A DNA stretch of 62,770 bases from a virus (IMGVR_UViG_3300038492_000235:1-62770), one strand, 5' to 3'. Shown: positions 38,984 through 51,784, counted from the first letter of the stretch. Notes: a model not told the origin generated them from the letters alone. Numbers and translations are program-made.

Positions 38984-39924
38984 TAGTGTGTGAAATCAAC
39001 CATAAACAATTCGTAAAGGGAAATTGGGAAATTCAACTAATAGAGCGAGATCGAGAATACGAATACCATGAAATCAAAGTTATTGAACGTCCTATGTTAG
39101 CGGAACGATTTCAAGAGGGGGATTCTATAACATTATTACCTGATAGAACAGACATAGTTTTATGGACTCCTCGTGAATTTCCTTTAGCTTCTACAATTAT
39201 TGCAATTGAACCTTTACCCAGTGAGGAATAGAATTATGATAATTACTCGAACACAATATCGCAAGTCCCATAAGCATAATTCCGGCATGAAAATATGGAC
39301 CTTCGTCGAGTATCGTTTACTGGGAATTAAGGTTTATACGGCTCGTAAGCTGGATAAGGCTGATTATTTAAGGCCAACAGACTAATGGCTTCCCGTGCAC
39401 CCGATCCCAGAATTGAAAATCTCATTACTGCACTTCGGGAAAGCAGGTCTGATGCTGAATACTATTACGGTTCTATGAATCCATATTCACTCTTTCGCAT
39501 TTTAAAATCGATATTTATACGGGCCGAGCCTTTATTTAAGGACGGTCACGTTATAACTGAAATTCGTGGTTATCATTATGACATTACCGGCCGAATATCC
39601 AATGACGGCTACAGGAGATTAAACGATGGTTAGACTTTATGAATTAACTGACGGTAACGTGAGTTGCATGGTAGCAATGGATATGAATTGCCACCTTGAT
39701 AATCTCAATAGCCCTTTACAAATAGAAGCGGTTAGCGAGTATTTTGGCGAAGAACTTAACAATGTAGAATACATGCAAGTCTACCCTAATCTTAAAAGGG
39801 CTCAGGAAATCAGGGATATTTGTTTTGATGGCGCTGCTACTGTCTCACTAACATTGGAACAATGGTCTGCATTGCTTTCTTCTTTCAAAGTTAAGAACGT
39901 GATCATTTCCCAATCTGAATACTA

Positions 39925-43256: not shown

Positions 43257-43285
43257 TTGACTTATCGATGAGGGTGTCGTATATT
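43257..43285 (+). promoter_or_regulatory. sigma70-like promoter driving the Y/tRNA-Ro60 operon
   Basis: TTGACT-N17 (contains TGAG)-TATATT. Confidence 0.65.
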
Positions 43286-43463: not shown

Positions 43464-43584
43464 GGGGCTGTTGCCAGTTGGTTGGCGACCCTTTACCGGA
43501 ACCCTTGTTAGTTGCAGCTATGACTATTGTTGTAGGTAACTGAACGGGAAAAGGTTATCTTTGGTTCGATTCCAAACAGCCCCG
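43464..43584 (+). ncRNA. tRNA-Y chimera 1: tRNA body whose anticodon arm is replaced by a permuted Y-like module
   Basis: Acceptor GGGGCUG/CAGCCCC, D arm GCCA/UGGC, T arm UUUGG-UUCGAUU-CCAAA; insert ~43489-43559 with CUUGU...ACUGA-N9-GGUUAUC. Confidence 0.8.
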
Positions 43585-43591
43585 CAAAAAT

Positions 43592-43719
43592 GCGGCTTGT
43601 AGCTCAGTTGGTAGAGCAACGTAATTTTCCCTGAGCAATCCCTTGTCCCTTGAGGACTGAAGTTTTAGGGTTATCGCATTGAACGCCGTAGGTCGTGGGT
43701 TCGAGTCCCACCAAGTCGC
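43592..43719 (+). ncRNA. tRNA-Y chimera 2 (residual loop AUUGAAC; identity unclear)
   Basis: Canonical D and T arms; 54-nt insert 43622-43675 splits stem ACG|GC that pairs with GCCGU. Confidence 0.85.
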
Positions 43720-43739
43720 CTAAAAGATCATTGAAACAT

Positions 43740-43868
43740 GCTGTCTGTAGCTCAATTGGCAGAGCGCTAAAAACCCGTTTTTAGCCAACTTGTTCCGTAG
43801 GGGACTGATTTAAAAATGGTTATCGACTTCTAATCGAGAGGTTGCAGGTTCGAGTCCTGTCAGACAGC
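43740..43868 (+). ncRNA. tRNA-Y chimera 3: tRNA-Arg(UCU)-like with Y module in the 5' anticodon stem
   Basis: 55-nt insert 43769-43823; removing it gives CUCGA-CUUCUAA-UCGAG. Confidence 0.85.
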
Positions 43869-43874
43869 CAATAT

Positions 43875-43947
43875 TGCGGGATGTTAGCAGTGGTAGCTAG
43901 TTGGCCTCATAAGCCAAAGGTCGCGGGTTCAAATCCCGCTCCCGCAA
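43875..43947 (+). tRNA. tRNA-Met(CAU), initiator-like
   Basis: Cloverleaf, loop CUCAUAA, fMet-like acceptor and T arm. Confidence 0.9.
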
Positions 43948-43951
43948 CAAA

Positions 43952-44075
43952 ACGAAGTTTATCAGTAGCGGACGTTCCATGTAAAATACTAGTTAAGGAG
44001 CAGTCAGACTGAAAAAGGTTCAAGTTGATCGACTGGATTTGCCTATGGCACAATGGATGCCTTGGCTGGCTTCGT
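43952..44075 (+). ncRNA. Unassigned structured RNA inside the Y/tRNA array
   Basis: Terminal stem ACGAAGUU/GGCUUCGU, inner CAGUC/GACUG and UGCC/GGCA. Confidence 0.5.
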
Positions 44076-44081
44076 AATAAT

Positions 44082-44235
44082 AGCCGAGTGGTGGAATTGG
44101 CAGACACGGCACCTCAAAAAGTCTTTTGCCAAACCCTTGTTTCCAAACACTGCTTCTGGAAACTGAAGGTTGAAGGTTATCGGAAAAGTGCTGGACCGTA
44201 AAAAGTCCTTGCAGGTTCAAATCCTGCCTCGGCTA
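44082..44235 (+). ncRNA. tRNA-Y chimera 4: tRNA-Leu(CAA)-like with Y module in the anticodon loop
   Basis: Leu-type D loop, long variable arm, A73; 68-nt insert after CUCAAAA; GGCAC/GUGCU stem. Confidence 0.85.
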
Positions 44236-44247
44236 CAATTGAAATAA

Positions 44248-44314
44248 TGCTGGACTGAAGCATCAGGGTTATCATTCGGAGATAAAAGTCCTGAACGCAA
44301 TATCTTGTTCGGCA
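44248..44314 (+). ncRNA. Free-standing Y-RNA-like element A
   Basis: UGCUGGAC(U)GA pairs with UUGUUCGGCA; ACUGA-N8-GGUUAUC. Confidence 0.8.
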
Positions 44315-44324
44315 GCTATATAAG

Positions 44325-44400
44325 AGAACGGACTGAAGCATATCGGTTATCTTAGACTATTCCTCTAAACGAGTCCGAAACGCAATACCTTGTTCGTTCT
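44325..44400 (+). ncRNA. Free-standing Y-RNA-like element B
   Basis: AGAACGGAC(U)GA pairs with UUGUUCGUUCU; ACUGA-N8-GGUUAUC. Confidence 0.8.
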
Positions 44401-44440
44401 AATCCTTTACCCCATTACTTGCTCTTAGGAGGGCTGAATC

Positions 44441-46033
44441 ATGAGTAATACTTTCAAGAATCTTGCCGGTCACGGTAAGAGAGTTACACCCCAGACAGAA
44501 CCAATCGTAGGTCGTGAAAGCGATATGGCTCAAAATAACGCAGGAGGTTTTACCTTCCAGGTTGGCGACTTTGAGCAACTTCGCAGATTCCTAATCCTGG
44601 GATCGGATGGCGGAACTTACTACGCCGGTCAACGTGCCCACACTTATCAAAATATTGCCTGCTTGCAGCGCTGCATTGCTGAAGATGGCAAGGCCACTGT
44701 TGATCTGATCGTTGAAATTTCGAAAGCGGGTCGTGCCCCGAAAAATGATCCGGCCATTTATGCACTGGCAGCATGCGCTTCAGCAAACGACTTGGAAACT
44801 CGTCAATATGCACTGGCGCATTTGAATTCTGTCTGCCGTATCGGAACGCACTTGTTCCACTTCAACGCATTCCTGAAAGGTATGCGTGGCCGATCAAAGG
44901 CTGTTAACCGTGCTGTTGAAGGTTGGTATACTGCTCGGGACTACAACTCACTGGCATACCAATTGGTGAAATACCAGCAACGTGACGGTTGGAGCCATCG
45001 GGATCTTTTACGGTTGGTTAAGCCCAAAACCGATGATCCGGTTGTGAGCGCAATGTATGCCTGGGCGGTAGGTAAAGAGTATGATGCCTCACTGTTGCCC
45101 AACGTAATTAAGGGCTACGAAACTGCCAAGGGCGAAAGCACAACTCCATCGGCTTATGTGGTTAAAGAGTATGGCTTAACTCGTGAAATGCTGCCAACTC
45201 ACTGGCTAAACGATGTCGGTATCTGGGAAGCTCTACTGGAAAATATGCCTGTAGGTGCATTGATTCGTAACCTGGGCAAAATGACTTCCATTGGAGTAAT
45301 CAAGCCCTTGTCAACTGGTTTAGGTCATGTCCTGAATAAGCTGGGCAGCGAAAGCATCTTGAAACGTGCTCGCGTCCATCCGATTCAATTACTGACAGCC
45401 CTGGCAACGTATCGTTCCGGCAGCGGTTTCCGTGGATCTTTAACGTGGAATCCGGTTCCACAAGTAACAAGTGCCCTGGAAGATGCTTTCTACAAGTCAT
45501 TCGATAATGTAGAGTCCACAGGGAAGCGCTGGTTGCTGGGCCTTGATGTATCTGGCTCAATGTCATTCAGCGGCCATGTTGGATCTTTGAACTTAACGCC
45601 CAGAGAACTTAGCGGGGCAATGGCAATGGTTACTGCTCGTTCGGAATCTCAGTATCACTTCATGGGATTCTGTGACAAATTTGTTCCATTGGACATTACT
45701 GCTAACGACTCAATTCAATCGGTGCTTGGTAAGATCAGCAACTTACCTTTTGGTAGAACTGATTGCTCCTTACCGATGGTATGGGCCTTGAAAAACAAAG
45801 TTGAAGTTGACGCCTTTGTGATCTATACTGACAATGAAACATATGCAGGTGCAATTCATCCTGCCCAAGCATTGCATCAATATCGCCAGAAAATGGGTAT
45901 CGATGCCAAGCTGATCGTTGTCGGAATGACTGCTACCAAATTCACAATTGCCGATCCGCAAGATCCCGGTATGCTGGACATGGTAGGGTTCGATACTTCA
46001 GCGCCAAATCTGATGGCTGAGTTCGTCAAATAG
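44441..46033 (+). CDS. rsr: Ro60/Rsr (TROVE + vWA) RNA-binding protein
   Basis: NNAGGF, LRRFLILGS, KYQQRDGWSHRDLLRL, ALIRNLGKMT, MIDAS DVSGSM, TDNET, GMLDMVGFD. Confidence 0.96.
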   Translation: MSNTFKNLAGHGKRVTPQTEPIVGRESDMAQNNAGGFTFQVGDFEQLRRFLILGSDGGTYYAGQRAHTYQNIACLQRCIAEDGKATVDLIVEISKAGRAPKNDPAIYALAACASANDLETRQYALAHLNSVCRIGTHLFHFNAFLKGMRGRSKAVNRAVEGWYTARDYNSLAYQLVKYQQRDGWSHRDLLRLVKPKTDDPVVSAMYAWAVGKEYDASLLPNVIKGYETAKGESTTPSAYVVKEYGLTREMLPTHWLNDVGIWEALLENMPVGALIRNLGKMTSIGVIKPLSTGLGHVLNKLGSESILKRARVHPIQLLTALATYRSGSGFRGSLTWNPVPQVTSALEDAFYKSFDNVESTGKRWLLGLDVSGSMSFSGHVGSLNLTPRELSGAMAMVTARSESQYHFMGFCDKFVPLDITANDSIQSVLGKISNLPFGRTDCSLPMVWALKNKVEVDAFVIYTDNETYAGAIHPAQALHQYRQKMGIDAKLIVVGMTATKFTIADPQDPGMLDMVGFDTSAPNLMAEFVK

Positions 46034-46045
46034 GTTCTGCGATAG

Positions 46046-46069
46046 GGCAGCGGTTGATACGCCGCTGCC
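46046..46069 (+). other. GC-rich hairpin after rsr
   Basis: GGCAGCGG-loop-CCGCTGCC, no U-tract. Confidence 0.45.
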
Positions 46070-46096
46070 TGTTCGAGGCAGGGCCTTGTATCTGGT

Positions 46097-46169
46097 CTTC
46101 CTGGTAGCTCATGCGGACATAGAGCGCGTATTTATACGAGGTTCCCAGGTTCGAATCCTGGACAGGAAG
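46097..46169 (+). ncRNA. tRNA-like RNA with truncated anticodon arm
   Basis: Acceptor, D and T arms present; anticodon arm is only CGUA-UUUA-UACG. Confidence 0.75.
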
Positions 46170-46180
46170 CAAATTTAGAA

Positions 46181-46939
46181 ATGGAGAGCATTATGCACCA
46201 ATCGAGTTTAGTAGTTGACAGAGAACAGTATAACCGTTTTGTAGAATTGATGCCGGAACTTACTGGCTCTGAAGTATATTTCTTGTCGTTGTCCGCAAGA
46301 TCTAAGTATCTGACTGATGACGAGCGTGAAAAATACAAGCTAACCGGAGCCGAAATGTTCAGTCGGCAAACAGCATTTGATAAGCCTGGGCTTGAATACG
46401 CTCTCGTAAAAATGGAAGCGGAACTTGGTTACAAGAGAACGAAATCCGGCCAAGAATTTCCGGCTCATGCTCTGGTTGTTTATGTGAATGTAAATCCAAG
46501 TTCACTGCCCAAGGCATACGGTAAATTTATGTCGCAAATGGCTAAGATTCAGCTTGAAGCCTTTGAAACGGCCATTACCGGTAAGGAACCTGACTTTAAA
46601 GGATTCCATAACATGCCCAGGAAGATTCTCAGTGCGATTCAAGCAGCAAAGTCTCGTCGGATCTGGGTAGATATCGATATTGATCTGGGCAGTGCCAAGG
46701 GTGATCAACAAGTGTTATTTGAAATCAAGGGGATCTTTGACGAGGAAATTATCATTCAAACTCGTTCTGGTTTCCATGCTTTAGTTGCCAAAGAACGTGC
46801 TGGCAATTACTCAAGAGTTGTTAAAATGATTAACCATAGGCTCTCAGAGTTTGGTGGTGAATGTCAGTATAACAGCAATGCAATGGTTCCTATGCCTGGA
46901 ACCGTGCAGGGCGGAAGTTTAGTAAAATTTATTGACTGA
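46181..46939 (+). CDS. Divergent AEP (primase-polymerase)-like protein
   Basis: WVDIDID, QTRSGFH, VPMPGT match the three AEP motifs in order. Confidence 0.5.
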   Translation: MESIMHQSSLVVDREQYNRFVELMPELTGSEVYFLSLSARSKYLTDDEREKYKLTGAEMFSRQTAFDKPGLEYALVKMEAELGYKRTKSGQEFPAHALVVYVNVNPSSLPKAYGKFMSQMAKIQLEAFETAITGKEPDFKGFHNMPRKILSAIQAAKSRRIWVDIDIDLGSAKGDQQVLFEIKGIFDEEIIIQTRSGFHALVAKERAGNYSRVVKMINHRLSEFGGECQYNSNAMVPMPGTVQGGSLVKFID

Positions 46940-46950
46940 AAGGAACATTA

Positions 46951-47925
46951 ATGGCACTACATCGTTATGAAGATTACCGGCCAAAAACCATTGGCAAGTA
47001 TATCATCGAAAAGGCCAATATCATTTTAGCTGATTGGCATTCTCAAGGTTATGACTTGACAGTCCGACAACTGTATTACCAATTTGTCGCGAGAGATTGG
47101 TTCCCAGGCTCTTGGGTTGATCCGGCAACTGGTTCGACCAATAACCAAAAGTCTTACGAAAAGATGGGGCGAATTGTTAGCCGTGCACGTAAGGCCGGTA
47201 TGATCGACTGGAAGTATCTTGTTGACCTTGGCAGAGTTCCGAAGAAAGCCGGGGAATGGGACAATATCACAGACTTGGTAGAAACTGCTATCAGAGCATA
47301 CCGGAAGGATCGCTGGGTAGGTCAGCAATACCATGTGGAAGTAGCTGCTGAGAAAGACGCTGCAACGAGCATTGTCAATCCCATCGCGCATAAGTGGCAC
47401 ATTGCCTACACTGCCAATAAGGGCTATACAAGTTCATCGGCAATGTATCAAATGGCCCAGAGAATGCGAGAAGCGGCAGCGATATTTGACAAGATTCCGG
47501 TATTAATTTATGTCGGCGACCATGACCCGAGCGGATGCCATATGTCAGTTGATTTGGCAGATCGTATGCGGGAAATGTTTGGTGAGCAACAGTCTTTGAA
47601 TGACTGGCATGGTGGATTTGAGTATGATGATATGCCCTATGCACTGAATAATATGATTGTTGACCGTGTTGCACTGAACATGGATCAAATTCAACAATAC
47701 GAACCGCCAGTGAATCCGGTCAAAGATACAGACAGCCGGAGTCCGGCATATGTAGCCGAGCACGGAGAGGATTGCTGGGAGCTTGACGCCTTGCGGCCGG
47801 ATGTGTTGACGGACCTTGTTGAGACAGCAATTTTAAAATACCTTGACAAAGGGAAGTTTGAAGCCGTTATTAAAGAAGAGGTTGAAGATAAAAAGCGTCT
47901 CGAAGAGTTGCTTGAAAAGTTCTAA
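46951..47925 (+). CDS. TopoVI-A/Spo11-like wHTH-TOPRIM protein
   Basis: TVRQLYY, AEKDA, KGY, GDHDPSG, WELDAL. Confidence 0.75.
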   Translation: MALHRYEDYRPKTIGKYIIEKANIILADWHSQGYDLTVRQLYYQFVARDWFPGSWVDPATGSTNNQKSYEKMGRIVSRARKAGMIDWKYLVDLGRVPKKAGEWDNITDLVETAIRAYRKDRWVGQQYHVEVAAEKDAATSIVNPIAHKWHIAYTANKGYTSSSAMYQMAQRMREAAAIFDKIPVLIYVGDHDPSGCHMSVDLADRMREMFGEQQSLNDWHGGFEYDDMPYALNNMIVDRVALNMDQIQQYEPPVNPVKDTDSRSPAYVAEHGEDCWELDALRPDVLTDLVETAILKYLDKGKFEAVIKEEVEDKKRLEELLEKF

Positions 47926-47935
47926 GAAATAAATG

Positions 47936-47992
47936 GCCCAGAAGAGGCTATAAAAACATGTGATGCACTTACTTGTTTACCCTCTTCTGGGC
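47936..47992 (+). other. Long hairpin at start of main tRNA cluster
   Basis: 12-bp perfect stem GCCCAGAAGAGG/CCTCTTCTGGGC. Confidence 0.55.
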
Positions 47993-47998
47993 AGACTT

Positions 47999-48070
47999 GG
48001 GGCCTTAGCTCAGTGGCAGAGCGGCGCTTTTGCATGGCGTTGGTCGAGAGTTCGAGTCTCTCAGGCTCCA
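47999..48070 (+). tRNA. tRNA-Ala(UGC)
   Basis: Cloverleaf, G3-U70. Confidence 0.95.
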
Positions 48071-48077
48071 CAAGTTA

Positions 48078-48149
48078 GATGCTGTGACCGAGTGGCTAGG
48101 TGTAAGCCTGCAAAGCTTATTCACGTCGGTTCGAATCCGACCGGCATCT
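48078..48149 (+). tRNA. tRNA-Cys(GCA)
   Basis: Cloverleaf, U73. Confidence 0.95.
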
Positions 48150-48291
48150 CAATCTCAAGGGTGCAATTCCCGTAACACCGAGTAGGTGTGCGAGACTGGG
48201 CAGCGGACAATCTTTCGATTGTTGGGCGCTAATCCAACATGGCTATTAGAATGTTCATGACATCCGGTAACAAGGTTGCTGCTCCACCTTA

Positions 48292-48364
48292 GATTCCGTA
48301 GCTCAGAGGCCAGAGCGGGTGGCTGTTAACCACTTAGTCGTAGGTTCGAATCCTACCGGAATCT
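48292..48364 (+). tRNA. tRNA-Asn(GUU)
   Basis: Cloverleaf, loop CUGUUAA. Confidence 0.95.
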
Positions 48365-48367
48365 CAA

Positions 48368-48422
48368 TGAGATAAGAAGTGCAAAGCGGCTTTACCCAGG
48401 GTTCGATTCCCTGCTTATCTCA
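48368..48422 (+). ncRNA. Minimal tRNA-like RNA (acceptor + T arm, ~20-nt connector)
   Basis: GAGAUAAG/CUUAUCUC stacked on CAGGG-UUCGAUU-CCCUG. Confidence 0.7.
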
Positions 48423-48427
48423 AACAT

Positions 48428-48499
48428 GTTCCTGAAGGCAGATGGCGAGCCGCTTGGCTTTCACCCAAGTGTTAGTGGGTTCAATTCCCACCAGGAATA
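48428..48499 (+). tRNA. tRNA-Glu(UUC)
   Basis: Cloverleaf, loop CUUUCAC. Confidence 0.93.
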
Positions 48500-48601
48500 C
48501 AATGTCGTAAGTGAGCCAATACCGGTTAAAGCTTGCTGGGGAAAAGGGCCTTTTGACAACCTAGACAAATTACTGCAACGCCCTTTTTGCAGTAAAATTT
48601 C

Positions 48602-48676
48602 GCCTCAATAGCTCAGTGGATTTAGAGCGGCTGTCTTGTAAACAGCGGGTCGGGGGTTCGAATCCCTCTTGAGGCT
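48602..48676 (+). tRNA. tRNA-Thr(UGU)
   Basis: Cloverleaf, loop CUUGUAA. Confidence 0.95.
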
Positions 48677-48679
48677 CAA

Positions 48680-48827
48680 TGAGCGTGACGGTAAAGGAGA
48701 TGTGGTGCCCTTACACCGTGATCAGCGCTACGCTCGGCACCCAATGGTAACGATTGGTCCGGCTTTAGGGAACGTTCCGAGGTAATTCCCGGCACCCTTA
48801 CAAGGTTCAAATCCTTGCAATCGTTCA
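48680..48827 (+). ncRNA. Enlarged tRNA-like RNA (~148 nt)
   Basis: UGAGCG/CGUUCA ends, T arm CAAGG-UUCAAAU-CCUUG, several internal stems. Confidence 0.6.
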
Positions 48828-48829
48828 AC

Positions 48830-48902
48830 GCCTTAGTAGCTCAACGGACAAGAGCGTCTGGCTTCCACCCAGGGGATAAGGGTTCGATTCCCTTCTAAGG
48901 CT
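48830..48902 (+). tRNA. tRNA-Gly(UCC)
   Basis: Cloverleaf, loop CUUCCAC, U73. Confidence 0.93.
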
Positions 48903-48912
48903 CAAATAACAT

Positions 48913-48987
48913 AGGCCCATAGCTCAGTCTGGTCAGAGTAGGGGACTCCAAATCCCTTTGTCGAGGGTTCGAATCCTTCTGGGTCTG
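48913..48987 (+). tRNA. tRNA-Trp(CCA)
   Basis: Cloverleaf, G73. Confidence 0.95.
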
Positions 48988-48992
48988 CAAAT

Positions 48993-49083
48993 GCGTCTGA
49001 GGCATACTGTTGGTTCTGTAGCGGCAGGCTGTAAACCTGTTCCCTTCGGGTGAAGATCGTTGGTTCGATTCCAACCGGGCGCA
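48993..49083 (+). tRNA. tRNA-Tyr(GUA)
   Basis: Loop CUGUAAA, variable arm, unusually long D region. Confidence 0.88.
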
Positions 49084-49102
49084 CAAAGTTTTACCTAAAC
49101 AC

Positions 49103-49175
49103 GCGGTGTTAGCATAGCGGATTATGCACCACCCTGTCACGGTGGAGGACGCGGGTTCGAGTCCCGTGCATCGCG
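49103..49175 (+). tRNA. tRNA-Asp(GUC)
   Basis: Cloverleaf, G73. Confidence 0.95.
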
Positions 49176-49185
49176 CAAAATGTTC

Positions 49186-49258
49186 TTCCTCGTAGCTCAG
49201 TGGACAGAGCATCGGGTTTCTACCCCGAGTGTCGCGGGTTCGAATCCTGCCGAGGAAA
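49186..49258 (+). tRNA. tRNA-Arg(UCU)
   Basis: Cloverleaf, loop UUUCUAC. Confidence 0.93.
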
Positions 49259-49266
49259 CAAATAAC

Positions 49267-49295
49267 TTGACATTACAATGAGGAAGTATTATATT
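49267..49295 (+). promoter_or_regulatory. Internal promoter in the tRNA cluster
   Basis: TTGACA-N17 (TGAG)-TATATT. Confidence 0.65.
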
Positions 49296-49318
49296 ATGAA
49301 AGAACCTGAGAAGATCAT

Positions 49319-49391
49319 TGCTCCATAGCTCAATGGCTAGAGCATCCGGCTTTTAACCGGGAGGTTCTAGGTTCGAGTCCCAGTGGGGCAA
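49319..49391 (+). tRNA. tRNA-Lys(UUU)
   Basis: Cloverleaf. Confidence 0.93.
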
Positions 49392-49405
49392 CAACTATTT
49401 TATTT

Positions 49406-49480
49406 CAGCCTATGGGCCAGTTGGCCGTGGCCGTCTGGTTTGGGACCAGAAGATCGAAGGTTCGAATCCTTCTAGGCTGA
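49406..49480 (+). tRNA. tRNA-Pro(UGG)
   Basis: Cloverleaf, C1-G72. Confidence 0.95.
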
Positions 49481-49483
49481 CAA

Positions 49484-49600
49484 AAGAGTGCTGCTTTCAA
49501 CATTGCAAGCGGACAAAGGTGAATGGGCATGTAGCTCACACAACGCTGAGTTCCACTTGAAGCTGGAAGCCGTTCTTACTGAGGAGATCGCAGCACTCTT
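49484..49600 (+). ncRNA. Unassigned multi-stem RNA
   Basis: 11-bp perfect terminal stem AAGAGUGCUGC/GCAGCACUCUU plus inner hairpins. Confidence 0.6.
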
Positions 49601-49604
49601 ATAT

Positions 49605-49677
49605 GTGGCTCTAGCTGAGACGGTTTAGCGCCGGAGTGAAGTCCCGGAGCAGGTGGGTTCGATTCCCACGGGTCACA
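49605..49677 (+). tRNA. tRNA-Phe(GAA), atypical anticodon loop
   Basis: Loop GUGAAGU with A31-C39 mismatch. Confidence 0.85.
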
Positions 49678-49764
49678 CAAATACAGGCACGACGGGGATG
49701 CCTATCTGAAAGTGCGTTTAGGCTTTACTCTGATCAAGTATAGGTCAAGTGCTACCCCGGATAT

Positions 49765-49847
49765 GGCGGTATGGTGGAATTGGTATACGCAGTGGTTTTA
49801 GAAACCACCGGGCTAGTCCCATGTAGGTTCGAGTCCTACTACCGCTA
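49765..49847 (+). tRNA. tRNA-Leu(UAG)
   Basis: Class II cloverleaf. Confidence 0.95.
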
Positions 49848-49859
49848 CAATAAGCGCCT

Positions 49860-49942
49860 GGGAACGTGATGGAACTGGTATACATAGCAGACTTAAAATC
49901 TGTGGGCCCTGTGCCGTGCGGGTTCGAGTCCCGCCGTTCCTA
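49860..49942 (+). tRNA. tRNA-Leu(UAA)
   Basis: Class II cloverleaf. Confidence 0.95.
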
Positions 49943-49951
49943 CTAAAATAT

Positions 49952-50035
49952 AGAGGGTGCCGCGCTATGGTGCGCAAGCGGTCTTGAAAACCGTTGGGGT
50001 CGGAAACGGCAGGGGTTCGAATCCTCCACCCTCTG
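49952..50035 (+). tRNA. tRNA-Ser(UGA)
   Basis: Class II cloverleaf, G73. Confidence 0.9.
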
Positions 50036-50041
50036 CAACAT

Positions 50042-50116
50042 TCCCTTGTAGCTCAGTGGAATTAGAGCAATGCGCTACGAACGCATGTGTCGGGAGTTCG
50101 AATCTCTCCAAGGGAA
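50042..50116 (+). tRNA. tRNA-Arg(ACG)
   Basis: Cloverleaf. Confidence 0.95.
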
Positions 50117-50122
50117 CAAATT

Positions 50123-50374
50123 ATGAATAGAAAACAAAAAGTCTCAGTAAGGCAAGAATTAGGTAAGCTAATTGCCAGCCACAGAAAACTATGTGGTTTG
50201 ACCCAAAAGAAGTTGGCGGAGTTAGTCGGAGAACAACGAGATTACATACGCCAATTAGAAAGAGGTGCAATAAAGCGACCTGATGTTTTTGTCATGCAAC
50301 AATTAGCCAGAAGATTTGGAGTGACAGTTAATCACTTGCTATTAAAAAGTTTGATTAATTCAAGAAATAACTGA
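50123..50374 (+). CDS. XRE-family HTH protein inside the tRNA cluster
   Basis: GLTQKKLAELVG...YIRQLERG; start moved to ATG 50123; its TGA stop is the first 3 nt of the next tRNA. Confidence 0.85.
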   Translation: MNRKQKVSVRQELGKLIASHRKLCGLTQKKLAELVGEQRDYIRQLERGAIKRPDVFVMQQLARRFGVTVNHLLLKSLINSRNN

Positions 50375-50444
50375 CCCATAATTCAGTCGGTAGAATACCC
50401 CGCTCATAACGGGACAGTCGCAGGTTCGAGCCCTGCTGGGTCAA
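50372..50444 (+). tRNA. tRNA(CAU), probably Ile2 (lysidine) rather than Met
   Basis: Acceptor UGACCCA/UGGGUCA identical to this genome's tRNA-Ile(GAU). Confidence 0.85.
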
Positions 50445-50452
50445 CGCAACAT

Positions 50453-50528
50453 TCCTCTGTAGCTTAGTCTGGTTCAAAGCGCTGGCCTTACAAGTCAGAT
50501 ATCGTAGGTTCGAATCCTACCGGGGGAA
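50453..50528 (+). tRNA. tRNA-Val(UAC)
   Basis: Cloverleaf. Confidence 0.95.
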
Positions 50529-50554
50529 CAAGATTATACCATAAAGGATATGCA

Positions 50555-50887
50555 ATGCAAGAATTGGTTTGGTTTTTATCAGGGTTAGGAATATTAGTGT
50601 TTCTTATTGCAATTATATTGAATTGGGACCGCTATAATGCTAAAACCTCAATACCAGCTATTGAAAAAATGGACAGGGTTGAGGAAATCTTGACAGATGG
50701 CAAGGGACTATTTGACTTTTTAGCGGAGCAATCTTGCAACTCACAAGAGCTTATCGTAGGTAGTTGGTGGATACGGCAATTGGAGCACAAAAACATGATT
50801 GACTATATAGACAATTGCCGATTGTTTTTGGGAAAAAGAATAACTTTATCAAGTGAATTGGACGAATACGAAATCCAATTCACTTGA
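50555..50887 (+). CDS. Membrane-anchored hypothetical protein
   Basis: N-terminal TM helix; RBS AAGGA. Confidence 0.6.
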   Translation: MQELVWFLSGLGILVFLIAIILNWDRYNAKTSIPAIEKMDRVEEILTDGKGLFDFLAEQSCNSQELIVGSWWIRQLEHKNMIDYIDNCRLFLGKRITLSSELDEYEIQFT

Positions 50888-50896
50888 TAAGATAAT

Positions 50897-50970
50897 TGAC
50901 CCATAACTCAGTCTGGTAGAGTAGCATCCTGATACGGTGCCGGTCATAGGTTCAAATCCTATTGGGTCAA
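50897..50970 (+). tRNA. tRNA-Ile(GAU)
   Basis: Cloverleaf. Confidence 0.95.
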
Positions 50971-50995
50971 CTAACATTGGTGAATGAACACGTAT

Positions 50996-51070
50996 GGTGA
51001 GTGTAGCTTAGTGGCCGAAAGCACTGCGCTGTGACCGCAGGGAGCGCGGGTTCGAATCCCGTCATTCGCC
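50996..51070 (+). tRNA. tRNA-His(GUG)
   Basis: Cloverleaf with G-1:C73. Confidence 0.95.
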
Positions 51071-51074
51071 CAAC

Positions 51075-51158
51075 GGAAGGTTGGCAGAATTGGTATTGCA
51101 GCGCCCTGCTAAGGCGTAGGCCCTTTGTGGTCTAGGGGTTCGAGTCCCTTACCTTCCG
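51075..51158 (+). tRNA. tRNA-Ser(GCU)
   Basis: Class II cloverleaf. Confidence 0.95.
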
Positions 51159-51166
51159 CAACATAC

Positions 51167-51241
51167 TGCCGGGTGGCGAAATTGGACAAACGCACTTGAT
51201 TTTGAGTCAAGATATTATGGGTTCGAGTCCCATCCCGGTTG
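51167..51241 (+). tRNA. tRNA-Gln(UUG)
   Basis: Cloverleaf, unpaired 1-72, G73. Confidence 0.93.
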
Positions 51242-51325
51242 CAAGATTATTTTTTGATTTAATGCTTGACAATTCGATGAGGATGTATTATACTTATCGA
51301 AACGTTAACGAAAGGACAAATTATC

Positions 51326-51784
51326 ATGAGTAAAGATTTAGCGACTACTGGACAAACATCGCCGGACAATGGTCGGTTTCGACCTGACAGCAGAACAGTT
51401 TATGTTTATCACCATGACGTGGATATTGCCACAGCCCGTGCTGTATATCGTCGTCTGAAAAGCGAGAACATTGCTGCTTTCCTACCCTCAGTTGATATCC
51501 TGGGCGGTATGCCGGAAAATCTAGCCAAGCAATTTGCTATTGACAAATCAGCCTTGGTAGTAATGCTGTTTTCAGCGGAAATGGAGAAACTACCACTTGA
51601 CAAGGCAGCGGTTCACATTGCCACTACTGTAGCAAATTTGCAGGAACATCAGGTATTCGTTATTCCAGTATTAATCAACCATACGGAAATTCCGGCACAG
51701 TTTGGCAAGCCGATCAATTTATCGAGCCCAGGTGGGTTCGAACGGATTCTGAAAAGTATTCGTTTCTTTTTGGGGGTAAGTTAA
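51326..51784 (+). CDS. Stand-alone TIR-like domain protein
   Basis: VYVYH..D...A..V...L......F....I.GG...AI.KS.LVVMLFS...VIPVL pattern; own promoter at 51266. Confidence 0.6.
   Translation: MSKDLATTGQTSPDNGRFRPDSRTVYVYHHDVDIATARAVYRRLKSENIAAFLPSVDILGGMPENLAKQFAIDKSALVVMLFSAEMEKLPLDKAAVHIATTVANLQEHQVFVIPVLINHTEIPAQFGKPINLSSPGGFERILKSIRFFLGVS

Follow-up and report, generated by a model that had tools for sequence, protein, structure and literature searches.

Predicted tRNA-shaped Y RNAs beside a phage Ro60 gene

A complete 62.8-kb phage genome (IMGVR_UViG_3300038492_000235, 62,770 nt; the whole stretch is referred to here as the window) encodes, next to its Ro60 gene, four RNAs that are wired like ordinary tRNAs with free acceptor ends and carry a predicted Ro60-binding hairpin at the anticodon side. 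Literature searches returned only Y RNAs with a closed acceptor or a terminal stem, although they did not extend to the supplementary YrlA lists of Chen et al. 2014, where an open-acceptor example could be hidden, or to the 2020 Annual Review on bacterial Ro60 (PMC10870794). The same architecture occurs beside Ro60 genes of many other phages and bacteria. A sequence-only reading had proposed six Y-RNA-like modules here, four of them circularly permuted and grafted into tRNA anticodon arms. We find that this observation holds, with a correction for two of the four units, and that the interpretation attached to it is supported.

Six modules upstream of rsr

The rsr gene (44441-46033, + strand) encodes a 530-aa Ro60 ortholog (phrog_850) with TROVE (4e-39) and Ro60 vWA (3e-68) domains in Pfam, and it matches Ro60/Rsr chains in the PDB at E values of 1e-122 to 1e-125. 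The four tRNA-shaped units lie 200-980 nt upstream on the same strand. A search for ACTGA-N7-10-GGTTATC returned seven matches in the window, all on the + strand, where 0.03 were expected and 0 of 100 shuffles reached seven. Six of them lie at 43539-44351 with spacers of 9, 8, 9, 8, 8 and 8 nt, and one stray lies at 39556. The partner strand CTTGT precedes ACTGA in the first four units (43504, 43642, 43789 and 44136) and follows it in the last two (44304 and 44389).

Four modules lie inside tRNA bodies (W1-W4). ARAGORN with inserts allowed identified these bodies at 43464-43585, 43593-43720, 43741-43869 and 44082-44236, together with an ordinary tRNA-Met(CAU) within the array (43875-43948, 48.3 bits). 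Default ARAGORN and Rfam at gathering score detected only the tRNA-Met. The anticodons and introns that ARAGORN assigned to W1-W3 are artefacts of forcing an intron model and were not used. In each unit the acceptor strands pair 7/7 with one another, whereas pairing with the neighbor is 5/7, 5/7, 1/7 and 4/7, and no closed acceptor hairpin is present.

In W1 (43464-43584), the Ro hairpin (43504-43543) with GGUUAUC (43553-43559) takes the place of the anticodon arm, and the D arm is atypical. W2 (43592-43719) has a 7-bp acceptor from 43593 with a possible eighth pair (43592:43719), a Ro hairpin (43642-43660) and GGUUAUC (43669-43675). These are followed by an anticodon-like hairpin with a 7-nt loop (43673-43689), a 5-nt variable loop (43690-43694) and a T arm from 43695. 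W3 (43740-43868) has a 7-bp acceptor from 43741 with a possible eighth pair (43740:43868), a 9-bp stem (43775-43783 with 43811-43819), a Ro hairpin (43789-43808), GGUUAUC (43818-43824), an anticodon-like hairpin (43823-43837) and a variable loop (43839-43843). W4 (44082-44235) is a class II body with a long variable arm (44193-44208) and discriminator A. An intact anticodon-type stem (44108-44112 with 44188-44192) encloses its module, with the Ro hairpin at 44136-44166 and GGUUAUC at 44175-44181, and ARAGORN reads it as a Leu-type body with a 68-nt insert. W4 has no tRNA-type unit as a neighbor. Grafting into anticodon arms describes W1 and W4, but in W2 and W3 the module sits between the D arm and the retained anticodon-like hairpin, at a five-helix junction for which no 3D model was made.

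The remaining two modules are plain Y-RNA hairpins without D, T or acceptor arms. In Y5 (44248-44314) the ends pair (44249-44253 with 44309-44313), followed by ACUGA (44254), GGUUAUC (44267-44273), an apical hairpin with a 7-nt loop (44269-44285) and CUUGU (44304). In Y6 (44325-44400) the ends also pair (44326-44331 with 44394-44399), with ACUGA at 44332, GGUUAUC at 44345-44351, a hairpin at 44352-44368 and CUUGU at 44389. The rsr start codon follows 40 nt after Y6. A possible further module (44002-44071) has a terminal stem that pairs 6/6, but its fold z-score is -0.5 and its GGUUAUC is degenerate.

The units share a 3' flank with the phage's tRNA genes. W1 (G73-CAA), W3 (C73-CAA) and W4 (A73-CAA) carry N73-CAA, and W2 carries C73-CUA. 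An array of 23 ordinary tRNA genes lies at 47999-51242 (+), and with tRNA-Met the phage's 24 tRNA genes have CAA in 21 cases, CUA in two and CGC in one, against a background frequency of 0.036 for C[AU]A. Downstream of rsr, a tRNA-like RNA (46097-46169, +) has acceptor, D and T arms but an anticodon arm reduced to a 4-bp stem with a 4-nt loop. It scores 17 bits as tRNA-Sec, and could be a further partner RNA, although its membership is uncertain. A promoter-like site upstream of the array (43257-43285, +) matches 10 of 12 consensus positions, but 15 such sites were found against 7.7 expected, so it is not evidence of function.

Folding of the array corroborates the tRNA register. W1-W3 fold unit by unit at -44.5, -38.8 and -43.5 kcal/mol, against -30.9 and -32.7 kcal/mol for the cross-unit register. 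The hairpin stems beyond the Ro helix differ between units yet pair, with 9 of 10 pairs in W1 and 5 of 5 in W4.

Recurrence beside rsr and covariation

Linkage to TROVE genes and covariation of the helices had been named in advance as tests of the sequence-only reading, and both came out positive. A strict regular expression for the permuted Ro helix found it in only 11 of 61 scanner hits near rsr and was too rigid, so it was replaced by alignments. All 61 hits lie on the rsr strand. A MAFFT alignment of 23 units (A1) yielded an RNAalifold consensus of open acceptor, D stem, outer stem, Ro hairpin and T stem. In A1, 95.8% of cells pair against 76.8% in shuffles, 128 cells changed on both sides against 34.7, and slid controls pair at 34-49%. 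The scanner that selected these units demanded a 7/7 acceptor and a 5/5 T stem, so these two helices are partly paired by selection. The pair next to the bulge covaries, with G-C in 12 and A-U in 10. R-scape was not run on these alignments.

A model of the open form (R1) was then searched against rsr loci. Hits of at least 70 bits and 100 nt occur in 11 of 80 viral, 20 of 80 metagenome and 35 of 80 bacterial-genome loci; a scan of all public genomes was not made. No hit at E<1e-6 was found in 100 unrelated phage loci (861 kb). These control loci came from an exact-motif scan of viral contigs (CTTGT...ACTGA...GGTTATC), which gave 119 stretches, of which 16 held the only 17 motif matches with any tRNA-arm-like flank or a second motif, and these were treated as chance. 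In five whole genomes of 3.4-6.2 Mb, all 10 hits of at least 70 bits lie in the rsr locus, and hits elsewhere are 72-75-nt tRNAs of at most 60.7 bits, with 150 of 483-733 first-look candidates scored per genome. Within the window, W2 and W3 score 96.1 and 102.2 bits. W1 and W4 score only 54.1 and 40 bits, within or near the range of ordinary tRNAs (up to 49 bits in the window), so their membership rests on direct reading. The RNA downstream of rsr scores 24 bits.

Bacterial hits that were not used to train the model support the same structure. Among 58 such hits, 96.9% of cells pair against 81.1%, with 261 double changes against 54. The tertiary 15:48 pair covaries as well, being G:C in 11, A:U in 10 and other in 2 units of A1, and G:C in 40, A:U in 13 and other in 4 units of a second alignment (A2), which is fitted to the model's structure. 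None of 500 shuffles reached this. Of 132 distinct related units, 25 encode CCA after N73, where 1/64 is expected by chance.

The phage itself has no close relative, as Rsr identity is at most about 55%, so its own units could not be compared with orthologs. Seven rsr loci from 366 cultured-phage records were examined (FuzzBuster, Cashline, Mareelih, Nappy, Blueeyedbeauty, Evy and Trina). None has an open unit of at least 55 bits, and where an RNA is seen it is the closed form.

Proposed function and alternative readings

We conclude, with a probability of roughly 0.7, that W1-W4 are Y RNAs of the YrlA kind built in tRNA gene order: acceptor strand, D arm, Ro60-binding module closed by a hairpin loop, T arm, acceptor strand. 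In the module, CUUGU pairs with AC(U)GA around a bulged U, and an outer stem is closed by the GG of GGUUAUC. The sequence architecture, the covariation, the linkage to rsr and the tRNA-type 3' flanks rest directly on the data presented here, whereas processing, Rsr binding and the partner of the tRNA body are inferences from them. In this view the array is transcribed together with tRNA-Met and cut out by the host tRNA machinery, with RNase P acting at the 5' end and RNase Z or exonucleases at the 3' end, after which CCA is added. The phage Rsr would bind the internal bulged hairpin and the tRNA-shaped body, now with a free acceptor end, would serve to recruit effectors, while Y5 and Y6 would be body-less Y RNAs for the same Rsr. 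The shared trailer and the encoded CCA of related units support tRNA-like processing indirectly, as the sequence-only reading had suggested, and Mycobacterium smegmatis YrlA, with a 7-bp acceptor stem, is cut by RNase P RNA in vitro and receives CCA in vivo (PMC4201824). Cleavage, CCA addition, charging, decoding, Rsr binding and the suggested adaptor or decoy role were not assayed, and there are no data on expression or RNA ends; among listed sequencing runs, no RNA run contains the stretch, and the four DNA runs that do, all of one study and possibly the source of the stretch, were not mapped. Binding is assumed from the motif and gene linkage only. The Ro helix has a bulged U and an A-U pair where animal Y RNAs have a bulged C and a U-A pair.

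The alternatives appear unlikely. The RNAs could be canonical YrlA molecules read across unit borders, each combining the Ro strand and T arm of one unit, a closed acceptor hairpin made from the spacer, and the D arm and Ro strand of the next. Rfam YrlA does match 43533-43652 (35.1 bits) and 43667-43800 (28.3 bits) in exactly this register and only across unit borders, with a 7-bp cross-unit stem in the first that pairs a stretch of the 3' part of W1 with the 5' part of W2, neighboring acceptors pair 5/7 for W1-W2 and W2-W3, and canonical tandem YrlA arrays exist in related loci. However, both scores are far below the gathering score of 69, each unit's own acceptors pair fully with compensating differences, and the cross-register folds are 10-14 kcal/mol weaker. 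This register would also orphan the 5' half of W1 and the 3' half of W3, which is followed by tRNA-Met (1/7), W4 has no tRNA-type neighbor, and the tRNA-type trailer follows each unit's own acceptor. It is likewise improbable that both registers are used, with processing or conditions deciding between them. Partial cross-unit complementarity in W1-W3, T arms that can pair their acceptor strand both ways in 9 of 80 bacterial loci, and arrays mixing both forms (four open and one closed units in one related locus, L216) speak for it, but the cross-unit helices in the window are imperfect and weaker, and we infer that the local Ro hairpin would form first during transcription.

We also doubt that the units are decoding tRNA genes in which the module is a removed intervening sequence or a tolerated extra arm. 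With the insert skipped, W4 reads as a clean class II Leu-type tRNA with a 7-nt anticodon loop, and W2 and W3 keep a hairpin with a 7-nt loop followed by a standard 5-nt variable loop. In 64 related units this loop has U at position 2 in 42 (shuffles 0.30) and a purine at position 6 in 50 (shuffles 0.46). Yet the middle triplet is very variable (33 different triplets in the 64 units), W1 has no anticodon-like loop, and the same 7-nt-loop hairpin caps Y5, which has no tRNA body. The insert is too short for a self-splicing intron and matched no intron family, no splicing endonuclease or RNA ligase was found among the 19 proteins scanned, the 24 tRNA genes already cover all 20 amino acids, and in the five whole genomes the units occur only beside rsr. 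Decaying pseudogenes, or tRNA genes disrupted by a small mobile insert, are the least likely reading. The atypical D arm of W1, the failure of standard tRNA finders on all four units and a RefSeq pseudo 'tRNA-OTHER' label on a comparable region of Rhodococcus phage Trina could suggest decay, but covariation keeps every helix, including the insert's own stems, across phages and several bacterial phyla, the 15:48 pair covaries, the trailer is conserved and scanner hits share the rsr strand.

A further reading, which is not excluded but is improbable, is that these are working tRNA/Y-RNA chimeras that, after RNase P/Z processing and CCA addition, are charged by synthetases that do not read the anticodon. 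W4 has a class II body with A73 as for leucine, and W2 and W3 have a possible G-1:C73 pair as for histidine. A Ro60 ring would then ride on an aminoacyl-tRNA look-alike, which would tie Ro60 to elongation factor, the ribosome or tRNA-targeting host defence nucleases as a decoy or sensor in the phage-host conflict over tRNAs.

The architecture is not a curiosity of one phage, as in our sample it sits beside rsr in about a fifth of viral and metagenome loci and in 35 of 80 bacterial-genome loci. It gives a testable answer to whether the tRNA likeness of Y RNAs extends to the acceptor end, meaning RNase P/Z processing, CCA addition and perhaps charging. It suggests how the open and closed forms interconvert, because a tandem array contains both registers, and it would link phage tRNA arrays with Ro60 in one transcription and processing unit. 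It also shows that Rfam YrlA, Rfam tRNA and default tRNA finders miss or mislabel these genes.

Relation to known Y RNAs and tRNA genes

YrlA (RF02553; PMC4201824; 10.1101/312249) is the closest known system. Like W1-W4 it is encoded beside rsr on the same strand and has tRNA-like D and T arms, an acceptor-type stem and a covarying 15:48 pair. Its Ro60-binding helix lies on the anticodon side of an L-shaped body, as does the predicted one of W1-W4. The CNGA-type 5' strand resembles the published GNCGAAN0-1G motif, which is paired to a UUG-type strand, and closed-acceptor YrlA units in related loci also carry GGUUAUC. The AC(U)GA strand paired with UUGU is invariant in 6 of 6 modules, but this is a variant of the motif with U as the bulged base, and whether it counts as the YrlA helix is left undecided. 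The connectivity differs. In YrlA the 5' and 3' ends form the Ro stem and the acceptor stem is a closed hairpin (order T, acceptor hairpin, D), whereas in W1-W4 the ends form the acceptor stem and the Ro helix is a closed hairpin (order D, Ro hairpin, T). YrlA is described as a circularly permuted tRNA with a closed acceptor stem, and here the unpermuted form exists as a gene. The Ro site is stated to lie in a long stem formed by the two ends in all characterized Y RNAs (10.1101/312249), which applies to Y5 and Y6 but not to W1-W4. At gathering score Rfam found no YrlA in the window or in 15 related loci, but closed units of related loci also reach only 34-52 bits, indicating that the model is narrow.

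As tRNAs (RF00005), W1-W4 have a 7-bp acceptor, D arm, T arm and tRNA-type 3' flank, but none reaches the gathering score of 29 bits, and a 55-80-nt module replaces the anticodon arm or sits beside it. Some relatives do pass as tRNA with a long insert.

Processed M. smegmatis YrlA also ends up with an opened 7-bp acceptor stem and an added CCA, showing that the tRNA machinery can act on a Y RNA (PMC4201824). There the open end arises by cleaving a closed hairpin, which leaves a nicked, two-piece molecule, whereas here a single chain is encoded in tRNA order and the open end is the primary design. Deinococcus radiodurans Yrn1 (RF01053) has tRNA-like features in D-to-T order, but its Ro stem, formed by the ends, occupies the acceptor position and leaves no free acceptor end (PMC4201824), and it has no match in the window. 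Thermus phage phiLo encodes a Ro60 with two Y-like RNAs upstream, Yrl1 and Yrl2, each with a 5'-3' terminal stem and a CGAA-type motif (PMC12135203). These resemble Y5 and Y6, while no tRNA body or open acceptor form is described there. Circularly permuted tRNA genes of algae and one archaeon (10.1101/312249) likewise encode the same RNA fold in two circular orders. Two-piece tmRNA from permuted genes is a further case. Those are translation RNAs restored to normal function by processing, whereas here the permutation relates two forms of a Ro60 partner RNA.

A Ro60 locus with four tRNA-shaped units

The phage genome is a virus record of 62,770 bases that is rated complete and came from an aquatic metagenome. 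All long ORFs lie on the + strand, and the encoded proteins include Pam3-like structural proteins, a family A DNA polymerase, helicases, and a primase. The ORF at 44441-46033 encodes a Ro60 ortholog (Rsr) with a TROVE domain (Pfam, 4e-39) and the Ro60 vWA domain (3e-68) that is assigned to phrog_850 in PHROGs. The protein matches structures of vertebrate Ro60 and Deinococcus radiodurans Rsr over its full length (E 1e-122 to 1e-125). A TIR-domain protein (Pfam TIR_2, 2e-06, just above the cut-off) is encoded at 51326-51784, directly after the tRNA array.

The motif ACTGA-N-GGTTATC occurs seven times in the genome, where 0.03 occurrences are expected. Six of these lie between 43539 and 44351, and each of the six has a CTTGT partner. 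The seventh exact match (39556-39574) is located 4 kb upstream of the array without tRNA or CUUGU context and is probably due to chance. A possible additional, degenerate Y module lies at 44002-44071, between tRNA-Met and the unit W4, and carries ACUGA, a GGUU-type motif, a CUUGG strand, and ends that pair 6/6, but its fold is no better than that of shuffled sequences (z = -0.5).

With default settings, ARAGORN and Rfam at gathering score find only a tRNA-Met (43875-43948) in this stretch. When long inserts are allowed, ARAGORN identifies four further cloverleaf bodies at 43464-43585, 43593-43720, 43741-43869, and 44082-44236 (here W1 to W4), the positions at which the sequence-only reading had placed them. 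Our own scan for T arms, followed by a search for the partner of the next seven bases, gave a perfect upstream partner in all four units, located 96-129 nt before the T arm, and no downstream partner that would close a hairpin. The reported arrangement of Y-RNA-like modules within tRNA bodies beside rsr is confirmed.

A tandem array of such units also contains canonical YrlA read across the unit borders, and this alternative register is the main risk to our reading. Rfam does detect YrlA in that register at 43533-43652 and 43667-43800, but at only 35 and 28 bits against a gathering score of 69. The acceptor strands of each unit pair 7/7 with one another, whereas neighboring strands pair 5/7, 5/7, 1/7, and 4/7. 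The W1-W3 array folds unit by unit, and single units are 10-14 kcal/mol more stable than cross-unit segments. The hairpins that close the Ro helix differ in sequence yet still pair (9 of 10 pairs in W1 and 5 of 5 in W4). W4 has no tRNA-type neighbor and W3 is followed by an ordinary tRNA, and the acceptor end of each unit is followed by the trailer of the phage's own tRNA genes. All of these observations favor the within-unit register. The anticodon-like hairpin found in W2 and W3 (see below) also caps Y5, a plain Y-RNA hairpin of the same array that has no tRNA body. We therefore read this hairpin as part of the Y RNA and not as a decoding anticodon.

The phage carries 24 ordinary tRNA genes (43875-51242), of which 21 have CAA rather than CCA directly after the discriminator base, two have CUA, and one has CGC. 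A trailer this uniform suggests a processing or CCA-repair signal specific to this phage or its host. W1, W3, and W4 are followed by CAA and W2 by CUA, while C[AU]A has a frequency of 0.036 at a random position. Whatever this trailer does, selection treats the four units like tRNA genes at their 3' ends. Elsewhere, 25 of 132 distinct units of this kind encode CCA after the discriminator, where 1 in 64 is expected. Another tRNA-like RNA follows directly after rsr (46097-46169) and is preceded by a strong hairpin (46046-46069). It has good acceptor, D, and T arms, but its anticodon arm is reduced to a 4-bp stem with a 4-nt loop, so it cannot decode.

Anatomy of the module

Within the module, CUUGU pairs with AC(U)GA, leaving the U bulged. 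Enforcing this helix costs 1.8-3.8 kcal/mol relative to the free fold. Outside it lies a second stem whose outer pairs use the GG of GGUUAUC and which spans 9 bp in W3 (43775-43783 with 43811-43819).

The graft differs between units, and the claim that the modules are grafted into anticodon arms requires refinement. In W1, the remainder of GGUUAUC is the variable loop, so the module stands in for the anticodon arm. In W4, a 5-bp anticodon-type stem (44108-44112 with 44188-44192) encloses the module inside a class II body with a long variable arm. In W2 and W3, the module is followed by a small hairpin with a 7-nt loop (AUUGAAC and CUUCUAA, respectively) and by a standard 5-nt variable loop. 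By tRNA numbering this hairpin is the anticodon arm, and the module is an extra arm between the D and anticodon arms. Among related units with room for it, 64 of 72 have such a hairpin, against 56% of shuffles. Loop position 2 is U in 42 of 64 (shuffles 0.30) and position 6 is a purine in 50 of 64 (shuffles 0.46), whereas the middle triplet varies freely.

Open-acceptor units beside other rsr genes

The phage Rsr has no close relative (best identity about 55%), so we collected 80 viral, 80 metagenome, and 80 bacterial-genome rsr loci. Our scanner found 61 open units within 1.5 kb of rsr in 38 of the 160 viral and metagenome loci, all on the rsr strand, and 47 closed (canonical) units in 35 loci. 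A single open call came from 1.0 Mb of unrelated phage DNA. In the genome loci there were 62 open units on the rsr strand and five on the other strand, with open units in 42 of 80 loci, as well as 37 closed units in 26 of 80 loci. The main exception to the same-strand, upstream rule is one Chloroflexia genome (locus L317, 5964-6585, minus strand of the locus), in which four open units sit downstream of rsr on the opposite strand. Group I introns (85-89 bits) lie a few kb downstream of rsr in three related viral contigs (L004, 3625-3842; L006, 7619-7836; L010, 8866-9082).

Covariation and linkage to TROVE genes had been named in the sequence-only reading as tests of the module, and both were examined. 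A MAFFT alignment of 23 units (A1) gave the expected five helices as its RNAalifold consensus. In this alignment, 95.8% of cells paired, against 76.8% in shuffles and 34-49% in slid controls, and 128 cells had changes on both sides, against 34.7. The scanner had demanded a paired acceptor and T stem, so only the D stem, the outer stem (92%), and the Ro hairpin (90%) are free tests. A covariance model built from this alignment (R1) scores W3 at 102, W2 at 96, W1 at 54, and W4 at 40 bits, while the ordinary tRNAs of the phage score at most 49.

Hits to R1 of at least 70 bits and 100 nt occur in 11 of 80 viral loci, 20 of 80 metagenome loci, and 35 of 80 bacterial-genome loci. Of the 31 viral and metagenome loci, 16 gave no training sequence, and none of the bacterial loci was in the training set. 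There were no hits at E<1e-6 in 100 control loci (861 kb). The 58 bacterial hits were aligned to the model (A2) and pair in 96.9% of cells against 81.1%, with 261 double changes against 54, although this alignment leans towards the model's structure. The tertiary 15:48 pair switches between G:C and A:U, with counts of 11 and 10 and two exceptions in A1, and of 40 and 13 and four exceptions in A2, which 0 of 500 shuffles reach. The body is therefore under selection for the tRNA L-shape. In five whole bacterial genomes, for each of which only 150 candidates were scored, all 10 hits of at least 70 bits lie in the rsr locus, and hits elsewhere are 72-75-nt tRNAs of at most 60.7 bits.

Inferred mechanism, origin, and relation to known Y RNAs

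The sequence analysis demonstrates the architecture of these units, its conservation, its exclusive linkage to rsr, and the tRNA-type flanks, and it supports the proposed interpretation of tRNA-shaped Ro60 partner RNAs, with one refinement about where the module sits. The steps that follow are inferred. We propose that the array is co-transcribed with tRNA-Met, that RNase P and the 3' tRNA machinery release the units, and that CCA is added. Rsr would bind the internal bulged hairpin, as Ro60 binds the bulged helix of other Y RNAs, and the tRNA body would recruit a partner. A precedent is YrlA of Mycobacterium smegmatis, which has a 7-bp acceptor stem, is cleaved by RNase P RNA in vitro, and receives CCA in vivo (PMC4201824). 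For a phage Ro60, binding of upstream Y-like RNAs and of host PNPase has been reported (PMC12135203).

Whether the units are charged is open, and aminoacylation was not assayed. W4 (class II body, A73) resembles a leucine acceptor. W2 (43592-43719) and W3 (43740-43868) can form an eighth acceptor pair (G:C) between the base before position 1 and the discriminator, and this possible G-1:C73 pair resembles that of histidine acceptors. W2 also has a G·U pair at position 3:70, which is an identity mark of alanine tRNAs.

We infer that the open and closed forms interconvert. A tandem array of closed units contains open units in the other register, and the reverse is also true, so duplication followed by loss of the outer halves converts one form into the other. 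Open and closed units do coexist in single arrays, for example in one of the collected rsr loci (L216).

Whether an existing Rfam family or publication already covers this topology had been raised beforehand as the test of novelty. Rfam 15 has no family for these RNAs, and some relatives pass as tRNA with a long insert. The Rfam YrlA model scores clear closed-acceptor units beside rsr in four loci (L207, L249, L288, and L290) at only 34-43 bits against the gathering score of 69, so routine annotation will miss most phage and environmental YrlA. In Rhodococcus phage Trina (NC_042040.1; locus L293, 2643-2851), RefSeq annotates a 209-nt pseudo 'tRNA-OTHER' just upstream of the Ro gene. The sequence reads as canonical closed YrlA units, so this call joins the D arm of one element to the T arm of another. 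A jumbo-phage survey, the phiLo paper (PMC12135203), and a 2026 preprint on tRNA mimics do not describe the open form, and full-text literature searches, which did not extend to supplements or to the 2020 Annual Review, gave nothing closer.

Chen et al. 2014 (PMC4201824) describe YrlA with a closed acceptor stem-loop and discarded hits overlapping tandem tRNA genes. Wang et al. 2018 state that all characterised Y RNAs hold the Ro60 site in a stem formed by the two ends, and only speculate that some might be processed towards tRNA form. The units described here are YrlA-type Y RNAs that differ from this description in their open acceptor stem and in an internal hairpin as the inferred Ro60 site. 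This form is widespread, well supported by comparative evidence, and directly testable.
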